Origin: Escherichia coli 042
GTDB taxonomy: Bacteria > Pseudomonadota > Gammaproteobacteria > Enterobacterales > Enterobacteriaceae
DNA length: 64,000 bases
Assembly (NCBI RefSeq): GCF_000027125.1
Contig: NC_017626.1
Direction: 5' to 3' (one strand)
In this document: positions 7,673-10,745 of the stretch, piece after piece
How the letters are laid out: each line of letters opens with the position of its first letter
How positions within the stretch are numbered: the first letter of the stretch is position 1
Position numbers and translations under genes: made by a program
Notes under the pieces: model-generated
What the model was told of the DNA's origin: nothing
What the model saw: the letters and a program-made list of their open reading frames with translations, nothing else
The model's database searches: none

Positions 7673-8097
7673 ATCCACCTCAATTAAAAATTGACCCTGT
7701 GAAAAATATGGTCGTTTTATAGGGTCGTCGTAAAAAAGTGACGACGGAAATAATGCGCGGCTATTTTAAAAACGAAGGCAAATCATTCGCCAGATAAATA
7801 AATCCAGTAAATTTGATTTAGGGCAACAGCGGGTTGCCCCATATAGTCATTTGTCTGATTGACAGTGTAGTGCAAGCGAAAGATTTAATCCTTTAGGCGT
7901 AATAAAAAATAATTTATCATGCTAATTATTTGATTTTGTTGTTTTTGCAGGCTTATCAGCAAGAGGGAGTATAACGCGATTATTCGCTCATTTTTCAGAC
8001 ATTTGCCATGCTTAAATGTGATGTCATCACGTATTAGCATGGCCTTTCCCGTTATACTGCCAGCGTAAAGGATAAGTCACATATTTCTGGAGGGGAT

Positions 8098-9756
8098 ATG
8101 ATTCTTGAGCGCGTTGAAATTGTGGGTTTTCGCGGTATCAACCGTTTGTCGTTGATGCTGGAACAATACAACGTCCTGATTGGGGAGAACGCGTGGGGTA
8201 AATCCAGCTTGCTGGACGCCTTAACTCTGCTGCTATCGCCAGAATCAGATCTCTACCATTTTGAGCGCGACGATTTCTGGTTCCCGCCGGGAGATATCAA
8301 CGGTCGGGAACATCATCTGCATATTATTTTGACCTTCCGCGAATCGCTGCCAGGCCGACATCGGGTTCGCCGCTATCGGCCGCTGGAAGCGTGCTGGACG
8401 CCATGCACCGATGGCTATCACCGTATTTTTTATCGTCTGGAAGGGGAGAGTGCGGAAGACGGCAGCGTGATGACACTGCGCAGTTTTCTCGATAAAGACG
8501 GACATCCGATTGATGTCGAGGATATTAACGATCAGGCACGCCATCTGGTGCGTTTAATGCCGGTGCTGCGCTTGCGTGATGCCCGTTTTATGCGCCGTAT
8601 TCGTAACGGCACGGTGCCAAATGTCCCTAATGTGGAAGTCACCGCGCGCCAGCTCGATTTCCTCGCCCGTGAGTTGTCCTCACATCCGCAAAATCTCTCT
8701 GATGGACAGATTCGTCAGGGACTTTCCGCAATGGTACAGCTGCTTGAGCATTATTTCTCTGAGCAGGGGGCCGGACAGGCGCGATATCGTTTAATGCGGC
8801 GGCGAGCCAGCAATGAGCAACGAAGCTGGCGCTATCTGGATATCATCAACCGGATGATTGACCGACCTGGTGGGCGCTCGTATCGGGTTATTTTGCTCGG
8901 CCTGTTTGCTACTTTGTTGCAGGCAAAAGGCACATTGCGGCTGGATAAAGACGCCCGTCCATTATTGCTGATTGAAGATCCAGAAACCCGTTTACACCCC
9001 ATTATGCTTTCAGTTGCCTGGCATCTGTTGAACCTTCTGCCATTGCAGCGCATCGCTACTACCAACTCGGGAGAGTTGCTTTCGTTAACGCCGGTAGAGC
9101 ATGTTTGCCGACTGGTACGTGAGTCCTCTCGCGTTGCCGCCTGGCGTCTGGGACCGAGTGGCTTGAGTACCGAAGATAGCCGACGCATATCCTTTCACAT
9201 TCGTTTTAACCGTCCGTCATCGCTGTTTGCCCGTTGTTGGCTGCTGGTGGAAGGGGAAACGGAAACCTGGGTTATCAATGAACTGGCGCGTCAGTGCGGA
9301 CATCATTTTGATGCCGAAGGGATCAAGGTCATTGAGTTTGCCCAGTCCGGGCTAAAGCCACTGGTTAAATTTGCCCGGCGAATGGGGATTGAATGGCATG
9401 TACTGGTCGATGGCGATGAAGCAGGGAAGAAATATGCCGCTACGGTACGCAGCCTGTTGAATAACGATCGGGAAGCCGAACGAGAACATTTAACGGCGTT
9501 ACCGGCGCTGGATATGGAACATTTTATGTATCGGCAGGGATTTTCCGATGTGTTCCACCGCGTGGCGCAAATCCCGGAAAATGTACCGATGAATCTGCGC
9601 AAAATTATCTCGAAAGCGATCCATCGCTCTTCCAAACCCGATCTTGCCATTGAAGTGGCAATGGAGGCAGGACGTCGTGGTGTGGATTCCGTACCGACGC
9701 TGCTGAAAAAAATGTTCTCACGCGTGCTGTGGCTGGCGCGCGGTCGCGCGGATTAA
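8098..9756 (+). CDS. ybjD: OLD-family ATP-dependent nuclease-like protein (N-terminal ABC/AAA ATPase, C-terminal Toprim)
   Basis: 552-aa ORF with GGAGG RBS; Walker A GENAWGKSS; Walker B-like LLLIEDPE; Toprim-like LLVEGETE ... VLVDGDEAG. Confidence 0.85.
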   Translation: MILERVEIVGFRGINRLSLMLEQYNVLIGENAWGKSSLLDALTLLLSPESDLYHFERDDFWFPPGDINGREHHLHIILTFRESLPGRHRVRRYRPLEACWTPCTDGYHRIFYRLEGESAEDGSVMTLRSFLDKDGHPIDVEDINDQARHLVRLMPVLRLRDARFMRRIRNGTVPNVPNVEVTARQLDFLARELSSHPQNLSDGQIRQGLSAMVQLLEHYFSEQGAGQARYRLMRRRASNEQRSWRYLDIINRMIDRPGGRSYRVILLGLFATLLQAKGTLRLDKDARPLLLIEDPETRLHPIMLSVAWHLLNLLPLQRIATTNSGELLSLTPVEHVCRLVRESSRVAAWRLGPSGLSTEDSRRISFHIRFNRPSSLFARCWLLVEGETETWVINELARQCGHHFDAEGIKVIEFAQSGLKPLVKFARRMGIEWHVLVDGDEAGKKYAATVRSLLNNDREAEREHLTALPALDMEHFMYRQGFSDVFHRVAQIPENVPMNLRKIISKAIHRSSKPDLAIEVAMEAGRRGVDSVPTLLKKMFSRVLWLARGRAD

Positions 9757-10745
9757 CCGCGAAACATCGTGGCCATTTGTGGCTGAATAGCGTCGAGCAT
9801 CTCATAGCGCCGACGGTATTCAGCCCGTTTTTTACTGGCGATTTCGGCAATCTCTTTTCGTGCTATCTGTGCTGGAAGGCGGTAATGGCGTTCAGCATCA
9901 CATACGCCGCCAACCGACTCCCAGAACGCGTTGTAATCAGCATGGATCTTGCCTTCTTTATCGCGATAACGCAGGCTGCGGTAAATATGTGTTTCATTGC
10001 TGACGGCAATGATCTGCTCTACCTGCAAACGTTGGGCAAACAGACAGGCTGCTTCCATCACAAGGCGTTTGGGAAATAGCCCGTGGCAGGCTTTCGTCGC
10101 ATTCTGGATTTCCTGATGTGGAATTTCCCATTTTGCGCCTTGCAGTCCGCCAATAAACATTGTTCTTTTCCCCTGATATTCACACAGGGTAAACGTGATC
10201 TCTGCCAGAGGAATACCTTCGCTGTTGCGGAACAGGATTGTGCTGTCACCTTCTTTATCCATTGAGATCATCATGGTCAGCTCAAGTGTGAACTGCTCGC
10301 CGTTTTTGCCTTCCAGCTTCGCCAGTTGCAGCCCGGGGGTATTCAAATATAAGCTGAATTCTTCCGCCGACATACACCCGCGGAGTAACGCATAATGGTA
10401 ACGTAACGCCTCCAGCAATTGCTTACGGCTAAGATTCGCCGCAAGGTAAGGGCGATGCAGACGCACAGGCAGTCGCGGCTGGCGCGTTAACAACACATTG
10501 AGATTAGGCCAGTGGGAAAGTTCGTTCATCCACTCAACGCTTAAACGCGGCATAATCAACGAGCGCAGCAAAAATTTCTGGCGAAAACTACGGCGATGCC
10601 AGAATTTACCCGGCCGACACTGTCCACGTGCCAGACTAAGAAAAAGTGACAGGCTGCTGAGAGATTCAGATGGCGTAAAGGTCCGTTCAGTTAGCTGCGA
10701 CATATTCATGAAATCAATGGTTATACATGACGTCGATTTCACCAT
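9753..10745 (-). CDS. ybjX: VirK/YbjX-family protein (DUF535)
   Basis: 330-aa ORF convergent with ybjD; the two stop codons overlap in TTAA (9753-9756); position between ybjD and macA as in E. coli. Confidence 0.8.
   Translation of the reverse strand: MVKSTSCITIDFMNMSQLTERTFTPSESLSSLSLFLSLARGQCRPGKFWHRRSFRQKFLLRSLIMPRLSVEWMNELSHWPNLNVLLTRQPRLPVRLHRPYLAANLSRKQLLEALRYHYALLRGCMSAEEFSLYLNTPGLQLAKLEGKNGEQFTLELTMMISMDKEGDSTILFRNSEGIPLAEITFTLCEYQGKRTMFIGGLQGAKWEIPHQEIQNATKACHGLFPKRLVMEAACLFAQRLQVEQIIAVSNETHIYRSLRYRDKEGKIHADYNAFWESVGGVCDAERHYRLPAQIARKEIAEIASKKRAEYRRRYEMLDAIQPQMATMFRG

Follow-up and report, generated by a model that had tools for sequence, protein, structure and literature searches.

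Within a 64,000-nucleotide stretch of Escherichia coli 042 DNA (contig NC_017626.1 of RefSeq assembly GCF_000027125.1; hereafter the window) the gene ybjD encodes a protein in which an ABC-type ATPase is joined to a Toprim domain, and its stop codon overlaps that of the convergent gene ybjX. We consider it probable that YbjD is a stand-alone, Class 1 member of the OLD family with an ATP-gated Toprim nuclease, inherited vertically and maintained for a function that depends on that nuclease. Proteins of the OLD family have come to be regarded, almost automatically, as phage-defence nucleases, and ybjD is among the roughly 15% of K-12 genes without an assigned function. The family assignment, the first phenotypes and the convergent overlap of ybjD were already known; since the assignment has been in the literature from at least 2019 and phenotypes were published in May 2026, the original prediction of an OLD-type protein at this locus was correct but not new. 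New here are the distribution and synteny of the gene, its absence from phages, the constraint on its individual domains and the dispensability of ybjX for keeping ybjD.

Domain architecture and family assignment of YbjD

Both open reading frames of the original prediction are real genes and not chance frames, with Pfam matches to DUF2813 (E = 5.9e-160) and OLD-like_TOPRIM (3.7e-16) in YbjD and to DUF535 (3.2e-102) in YbjX; their coordinates and those of the features discussed below are collected in Table 1. The four motifs from which an ATPase and a Toprim domain had been predicted translate exactly as quoted, namely GENAWGKSS, LLLIEDPE (8962-8985, residues 289-296), LLVEGETE (9241-9264, residues 382-389) and VLVDGDEAG (9400-9426, residues 435-443). 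In Pfam, DUF2813 covers residues 1-375 and OLD-like_TOPRIM (PF20469) residues 376-440, above its cut-off of 23.2 bits, and AAA_15, AAA_21 and SMC_N also match the P-loop end. PADLOC matches were to GajA models (down to 4.7e-80) and to the Old model (1.7e-25), whilst NCBIfam held no family-level model for YbjD and gave N-terminal P-loop matches only, far below their cut-offs. A search of the PDB with the single sequence returned marginal matches only (1e-4); with a profile built from 69 family members, which share 28-54% identity beyond the close orthologues, the best match was Thermus scotoductus (Ts) OLD (6p74; 1.5e-21, residues 2-441), followed by GajA at approximately 2e-19. Across the Pfam, NCBIfam and profile searches the ATPase head resembles those of RecF, RecN, Rad50 and SMC.

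An AlphaFold2 (AF2) model computed from the 69-member alignment had a mean predicted local distance difference test score (pLDDT) of 84.3 and a predicted template modelling score (pTM) of 0.81, with low confidence only at residues 163-175 and 224-244. When the model was compared with the PDB using Foldseek, the top 21 matches were all GajA, Ts OLD or retron Eco8 OLD chains (probability 1.00, E 1e-18 to 1e-12), followed by PtuA, at TM scores to the solved OLD proteins of 0.45-0.58 and with the relative orientation of the domains uncertain in the model. Profile hidden Markov models and the predicted fold therefore agree on an ATPase plus Toprim architecture, nothing in them points to a different ATPase family lacking a Toprim domain, and the assignment of YbjD to the OLD family is supported.

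Conservation in the 69-sequence family alignment falls on the residues expected of such a protein. In the Walker A motif G29 and E30 are invariant and N31, G34 and K35 are conserved in at least 90% of sequences, K35 being the lysine mutated by Atahualpa et al. (PMC13261556). The segment running from Walker B to the H-loop sits on a strand (residues 289-293) of the AF2 model, and E293, E296, L299, H300 and P301 are each conserved in at least 90% of sequences. Between these two parts of the ATPase domain lies the insertion of residues 61-270, in which only 40% of columns are invariant among 81 Enterobacteriaceae sequences, the ratio of nonsynonymous to synonymous substitution rates (dN/dS) reaches 0.125 and the helices of residues 177-277 have lower pLDDT; it matches the position of the helical region of other OLD proteins and may serve in dimerization. 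Within the Toprim domain E385, G386, E387 and D440 are invariant and D438 is conserved in at least 90% of sequences, with E385 aligning to E379 of the Bacillus cereus GajA. The C-terminal helices (473-490, 500-527 and 534-548) are all modelled at pLDDT above 90. OLD nucleases have been described as using a two-metal-plus-lysine mechanism (PMC6755086), and by analogy with Class 2 OLD proteins the invariant C-terminal residues, including E474 and K513, are likely second-metal and lysine contributors to the nuclease site.

A mechanism consistent with these features can be proposed. The ATPase head, of ABC type (Walker A K35, Walker B/H-loop 289-301) and broken by the helical insertion, would be joined to a Toprim nuclease, and E474 and K513 of the C-terminal helical bundle would complete the acidic site of that nuclease (E385, E387, D438 and D440). 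To judge from relatives of solved structure, YbjD would most likely act on nucleic acid as an oligomeric, metal-dependent nickase or nuclease, gated by ATP; among relatives, Vc OLD nicks and P2 Old cleaves tRNA, as cited in OLD papers. Nucleotide binding would restrain rather than power the activity: a K35A variant of YbjD is more toxic than the wild type (PMC13261556), which is consistent with ATP binding holding the protein in check.

Some proteins with DUF2813 and OLD-Toprim matches are considerably longer, at 815-1867 amino acids (P0149, P0164, P0177, P0199 and P0167), several having long C-terminal extensions. In the longest (P0164, P0177 and P0199) about 600 residues split the Walker A end (residues 1-54) from the remainder of the ATPase, an arrangement reminiscent of the coiled-coil insertions of Rad50 and SMC.

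Comparison with known OLD systems

YbjD is a Class 1 (stand-alone) OLD protein, because no helicase, retron or mobile element lies near its gene. Within 9 kb either side of ybjD in E. coli no transposase, integrase or phage gene was found, nor any UvrD-like helicase, retron or reverse transcriptase, and in the other loci examined (80 Enterobacteriaceae species and the more distant loci described below) no UvrD-like helicase was encoded within 6 kb either side. The original prediction of a single gene with no obvious partner therefore stands. The same placement has been made in the literature (PMC13261556; PMC6755086): E. coli YbjD (b0876) was the query with which Schiltz et al. (2019) retrieved the 833 OLD homologues that defined the OLD classes, and E. 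coli and Salmonella were put among the Class 1 single-gene members (PMC6755086).

Like the other Class 1 proteins P2 Old, Ts OLD and Vc OLD, YbjD carries ATPase and Toprim domains on one polypeptide encoded by an isolated gene, and Ts OLD, its best family-profile match, also matches over the full length in Foldseek. Differences within the class are nevertheless clear. P2 Old shares only 27.8% identity with YbjD, over residues 252-440; YbjD toxicity is RecBC-independent, unlike that of P2 Old, and its Walker A lysine is not required, unlike that of Vc OLD (PMC13261556); and the genes of P2 Old and Vc OLD belong to mobile or variable elements, ybjD to the syntenic core genome.

The Gabija nuclease GajA resembles YbjD in domain order and fold and accounts for the strongest PADLOC and Foldseek matches, and in both proteins ATP appears to restrain rather than drive activity (Cheng et al., as cited in PMC13261556). 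That YbjD might be an orphaned GajA, that is a Class 2 OLD protein which has lost its GajB helicase, or else an inactive relic, is nonetheless highly improbable. GajA acts in complex with the adjacently encoded UvrD-like helicase GajB, and no UvrD-like gene adjoined ybjD in any of the more than 80 loci examined; the best PADLOC match is indeed to a GajA model and GajA chains are among the top structural matches, yet the Foldseek alignments show 13-16% identity and the family profile fits the Class 1 Ts OLD slightly better than GajA. A hidden GajB was rejected on the same data. As for a relic, decay is ruled out by dN/dS values of 0.01-0.08, constant length and invariant catalytic residues. A gene also labelled 'ybjD' is found paired with uvrD in SGI1; this is a Gabija-like pair and a different gene.

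Two further classes share a homologous ATPase head with YbjD, the Class 3 retron Eco8 OLD, which also has a Toprim domain, and the Class 4 PARIS AriA/AriB. YbjD is like neither in its requirements, Eco8 OLD needing the retron reverse transcriptase and multicopy single-stranded DNA (msDNA) and PARIS being split into two proteins, and the Eco8 and PARIS models of NCBIfam and PADLOC match only the N-terminal 50 residues or so of YbjD. The original prediction had ascribed the architecture to P2 Old, GajA and PARIS AriA alike; this holds for the first two and fails for AriA, which is the ATPase only, the Class 4 split having been described in PMC12796447.

Distribution and inheritance of ybjD

Of 5426 complete E. 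coli genomes, 5424 carry the whole 2.6-kb ybjD-ybjX segment, at 96-99.6% identity and almost always as a single copy (5426 places in 5424 genomes), in keeping with the core-genome position predicted originally. A synteny scan with one genome per species returned 80 Enterobacteriaceae species spanning Escherichia, Citrobacter, Salmonella, Klebsiella, Enterobacter, Kluyvera, Kosakonia, Atlantibacter, Buttiauxella and Franconibacter, in which YbjD is 550-552 amino acids long and 79-99% identical and the gene order is lysO-[aqpZ]-ybjD-[ybjX]-macA. Identity to E. coli YbjD falls stepwise, from 90% in Citrobacter and Salmonella and 86% in Klebsiella to 64% in Yersinia and Serratia and 56% in Proteus, and then to 45% in Aeromonas and 41-43% in Vibrio, in the order expected from how these genera are held to be related. 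Orthologues were also present in Tatumella (44%), Necropsobacter (Pasteurellaceae; 42%) and the betaproteobacterium Chitinilyticum (39%). Pairwise distances between YbjD proteins correlate with those of MacA and LysO (YbjE), with a Pearson coefficient of about 0.70.

Ordinary genes of metabolism and housekeeping surround ybjD in Vibrio, Tatumella, Necropsobacter, Chitinilyticum and three further contigs, and lysO is still its divergent neighbour in Tatumella and Necropsobacter. In Tatumella the order lysO-ybjD-cspD-clpS-clpA-infA-aat reproduces the E. coli backbone minus aqpZ, ybjX and macAB, so that ybjD belongs to the old part of that backbone. A patchy, defence-island, mobile or horizontally spread distribution was not observed among the E. 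coli genomes, the Enterobacteriaceae, or the phage and plasmid records. Phage records held no ybjD copy save the distant P2 old (27.8% identity over 189 residues) and one 2-kb fragment, and the 12 full-length 'plasmid' matches of at least 80% identity were chromosome fragments or mislabelled chromosomal records, those at lower identity including a Vibrio chromid. A mobile origin of the gene was accordingly rejected on its ordinary G + C content (0.53 against 0.51 for the window), the lack of phage copies and the chromosomal or chromid nature of the plasmid matches. We conclude that ybjD belongs to the vertically inherited backbone of the Enterobacterales and of gamma-proteobacterial orders close to them, and that it lacks a fixed partner gene.

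Three side observations concern these comparisons. Only 14 of the 5424 E. coli genomes match the window's own ybjD-ybjX segment at 99% identity or more, the others lying at 95-99%, which suggests that the window derives from an Escherichia lineage that has been sequenced less often. Several E. coli 'plasmid' records of 42 kb to 4.9 Mb (NZ_CP148327.1, NZ_CP134387.1, CP088669.1 and others) carry ybjD-ybjX at more than 99% identity and look like chromosome fragments or mislabelled chromosomes. In Necropsobacter the ybjD orthologue is followed, after 70 bp and in the same orientation, by a gene for a dinB-like translesion polymerase of the IMS family (L084, 7645-8715), an arrangement seen in none of the other taxa examined.

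Selection on ybjD

Substitution rates were estimated by the Nei-Gojobori method in comparisons against eleven species. The dN/dS of ybjD was 0.009-0.075, compared with 0.027-0.18 for aqpZ, 0.023-0.12 for macA and 0.039-0.063 for lysO, ratios that are rough in absolute terms, dS being saturated in most inter-genus pairs and undefined in several, and more reliable as a ranking of domains and a comparison with neighbours. For ybjX dN/dS was 0.066-0.25 and dN was 3-5 times that of ybjD. Within ybjD the ranking of segments was consistent across comparisons, with the Toprim segment (residues 376-470) the most constrained (dN/dS 0.003-0.033) and the helical insertion (61-270) the least. The family alignment gives the same picture over greater distances, since 17 of the 19 family-wide invariant residues, including E385, G386, E387, D440, E474 and K513, fall at positions 362-514, from the helix preceding the Toprim domain to the C-terminal bundle. 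Purifying selection on ybjD is as strong as on its housekeeping neighbours and is strongest on the Toprim site. It follows that the function maintained by selection needs the nuclease, and hence that this function is probably not the nuclease-independent anti-phage effect which overexpression produces, as described below.

Phenotypes and the function of YbjD

The phenotypes of ybjD were reported by Atahualpa et al. (MicroPubl Biol, May 2026; PMC13261556), who found the gene to be transcribed and proposed the name oldB. In that study the Keio ybjD knock-out was unchanged in its susceptibility to 68 BASEL phages, whilst arabinose-induced YbjD, at a non-toxic level of inducer, reduced plaquing of Bas18 and Bas20 and gave smaller plaques of Bas64-68. 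The anti-phage phenotype was unchanged when three acidic Toprim residues were mutated or the Toprim domain was deleted (construct 1-377), was abolished by deletion of the ATPase domain, and was kept by the K35A variant (PMC13261556). Expression of YbjD was not lethal in a recBC(ts) strain, in which expression of P2 Old is (PMC13261556). Searches of the literature for 'b0876' and 'DUF2813' returned nothing beyond OLD papers. The original prediction assigned no physiological role to YbjD, and this is still fair, the literature searched having yielded no defined housekeeping function. There is thus a mismatch at the centre of the data: the nuclease site is the part of YbjD guarded most strictly, yet the only known phenotype needs no nuclease.

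One way to read these data is that YbjD ('OldB') is a single-gene anti-phage defence which acts at native expression against phages outside the tested set, the ATPase sensing infection and the cell or the phage being killed or arrested. The plaque phenotypes of Bas18, Bas20 and Bas64-68 speak for it, as do the strong PADLOC matches to the GajA and Old models and the fact that the nearest characterized relatives, P2 Old, Vc OLD, GajA and retron Eco8 OLD, are all defence proteins. We nevertheless regard native defence as somewhat unlikely. The knock-out does not differ against 68 phages, and the phenotype is independent of the Toprim domain and its three acidic residues (PMC13261556) although this is the most strongly conserved part of the protein; moreover, the gene is universal, syntenic and vertically inherited and is neither patchy in its occurrence nor carried on islands, the phage and plasmid records contained no copy on a phage or on a true plasmid, and sequence diversity within E. 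coli is of an ordinary order (96-99.6% identity).

A second reading takes its lead from Cran1, an OLD ATPase/nickase of the Sulfolobales with a role in the cell cycle, which like YbjD is conserved and vertically inherited across its lineage and whose toxicity on overexpression depends on the ATPase domain (PMC12796447). For Cran1, too, the starting point was vertical inheritance throughout a lineage, and the role eventually found lay outside defence (PMC12796447), which makes a cellular role in nucleic-acid metabolism a real option for YbjD. YbjD might then be a housekeeping nucleic-acid enzyme (in DNA repair, replication, chromosome or RNA processing), the bacterial counterpart of Cran1, with the anti-phage effects as overexpression side effects of a DNA-binding ATPase. 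Besides the shared signature of conservation and inheritance, the strongest constraint lies on the nuclease site, the ATPase head is of the kind found in RecF, RecN, Rad50 and SMC, and the phage phenotype is nuclease-independent (PMC13261556). This too we can put forward only tentatively: ybjD is not essential, the literature searched contains no repair, growth or segregation phenotype, neither a conserved LexA box nor a conserved repair-gene neighbour was seen in the loci examined, and Cran1 itself, an essential archaeal protein, belongs to a separate clade (U11), YbjD not being known to have any connection with the cell cycle or with chromatin.

On the simplest reading, the overexpression phenotype would reflect something that the ATPase head does, for instance binding or titration, and the native function under selection would be a different one that requires the nuclease. 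In its more specific form, which we hold possible and a little more plausible than native defence, the YbjD/DUF2813 clade would be a domesticated, vertically inherited gamma-proteobacterial OLD nuclease engaged in Toprim-dependent host DNA or RNA housekeeping, and not in phage defence, with the anti-phage phenotypes as overexpression effects of the ATPase head.

Several points weigh against our preferred interpretation of YbjD as a stand-alone OLD protein maintained for a nuclease-dependent function. The literature searched contains no ATPase, nuclease or oligomeric-state biochemistry of the protein, and the reported phenotypes are all anti-phage, which favours the defence reading. Since ybjD is not essential and no phenotype of its deletion has been reported, the strong purifying selection is unmatched by a known cost of loss. 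Defence genes in a core genome are not impossible. To these must be added the saturation of dS and the uncertain domain orientation already mentioned. Solving the mismatch between constraint and phenotype would show whether bacteria, like the archaea of the Sulfolobales, have put an OLD enzyme to use in a cellular task, and it would also caution against taking overexpression plaque assays as native function.

Overlap of ybjD with ybjX

The overlap of the two stop codons predicted originally is confirmed by the sequence itself: positions 9750-9759 read GGATTAACCG, and the ybjD and ybjX stops have two bases in common inside the TTAA of 9753-9756. In 62 of the 80 species the gene immediately after ybjD encodes a DUF535 protein, and 61 of these 62 keep the four-base stop/stop register YTAR (TTAA, TTAG, CTAA or CTAG), the sole exception being Buttiauxella with a 12-bp gap. 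With an intergenic space of zero length there is no room for terminators between the genes, and terminator-like hairpins are found inside the coding regions of the partners (plus strand 9812-9829; minus strand 9453-9436). Owing to the stop overlap without intergenic space, the transcripts of ybjD and ybjX necessarily overlap, and ExcludonFinder (2025) lists the pair among 165 convergent E. coli excludons detected by RNA sequencing (PMC12288877). The pair therefore resembles a convergent excludon in its overlapping 3' ends and antisense transcripts.

It might be supposed that ybjD and ybjX form a functional two-gene unit, in which overlapping stops bring about coupled, mutually exclusive regulation (an excludon) relevant to YbjD. 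The YTAR register is indeed retained in almost all loci with an adjacent DUF535 gene despite YbjX identities of 44-74%, the transcripts overlap in E. coli (PMC12288877), and in uropathogenic E. coli given a cathelicidin-derived peptide ybjD was up (1.31) together with arn and other envelope-stress genes (PMC6737244). We nonetheless find this improbable. The gene ybjX is absent from 18 of the 80 species (Klebsiella, Raoultella, Superficieibacter and some Enterobacter among them), and likewise from Tatumella, Vibrio, Necropsobacter and Chitinilyticum, and YbjD is intact in all of them; since ybjX is thus dispensable for keeping ybjD, a two-gene system is unlikely. YbjX also evolves 3-5 times faster than YbjD, and convergent genes cannot have a common promoter. 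The same absences and rates led us to reject ybjX as a partner of YbjD, and a PhoP box upstream of ybjX was rejected too, matches in the window being at chance level and none lying in the ybjX-macA intergenic region. The overlap is an old, conserved packing of genes and probably not a functional pairing.

Some observations bear on ybjX and the 3' side of ybjD. If the RNA sequencing of PMC6737244 was unstranded, the induction of ybjD could equally be read-through from the convergent ybjX. In the species without ybjX (L023, L027-L029, L033, L034, L040, L041, L043, L046-L049, L055, L059, L060, L063 and L079) macA starts 49-166 bp past the ybjD stop on the same strand, and co-transcription of ybjD with macAB is possible there. 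Kluyvera-type loci have two tandem DUF535 paralogues after ybjD (L067, 3829-6000; L070, L071, L072 and L080, 7656-9800), of which the proximal (318 amino acids, approximately 51% identical to E. coli YbjX) keeps the stop overlap and the distal is about 65% identical; the spread of YbjX identities between genera (44-74%) would be accounted for if there were two DUF535 paralogue lineages that had been lost differentially.

Locus organization and upstream region

In the window ybjD is preceded by lysO and aqpZ, and the genes downstream are macA, macB, cspD, clpS and clpA. For ybjX, which RefSeq names 'VirK/YbjX family protein', the annotated start is at 10709, giving 318 amino acids, and 10745 is merely the start of the longest open reading frame.

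Table 1. Features of the ybjD-ybjX locus, in window coordinates.
Feature	Position	Strand	Details
Candidate -10 hexamer TATACT of the ybjD promoter	8053..8058	+	39 bp upstream of the ATG; GYTATACT core conserved
Shine-Dalgarno sequence GGAGGGG	8086..8092	+	Before the ybjD ATG; GGAGG conserved across genera
ybjD coding sequence	8098..9756	+	552 amino acids plus stop; open reading frame, Pfam, RefSeq 'ybjD: ATP-dependent endonuclease'
Walker A / P-loop GENAWGKSS	8182..8208	+	Residues 29-37; from translation
Variable, partly helical insertion in the ATPase domain	8278..8907	+	Residues 61-270; least conserved segment
Walker B to H-loop segment LLLIEDPETRLHP	8962..9000	+	Residues 289-301; from translation
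Toprim domain	9223..9507	+	Residues 376-470; EGETE (E385, E387, E389) and DGD (D438, D440)
C-terminal helical region	9508..9753	+	Residues 471-552; invariant E474, G481, K513, P514
TTAA common to both convergent stops	9753..9756		ybjD TAA 9754-9756; ybjX TAA on the minus strand 9753-9755 (TTA on plus)
ybjX (VirK/YbjX family, DUF535)	9753..10745	-	Longest open reading frame 330 amino acids; convergent neighbour

The 200 nt before ybjD were compared in an alignment of 14 genera. A GYTATACT core about 40 bp before the start was kept in 13 of the 14, the remainder of the intergenic region being unalignable, and no conserved -35 element was seen in this alignment. A consensus promoter scan found no ybjD promoter, the TATACT hexamer having been missed because no -35 element is present; from its conservation and position TATACT is the likely -10 element of the gene. 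Regulation of ybjD by DNA damage was considered and rejected, as the alignment contains no conserved LexA box, the single CTGT-N8-ACAG being confined to Enterobacter cloacae. A conserved -10 element and ribosome-binding site, without a -35 element or LexA box, would fit weak constitutive expression of ybjD.

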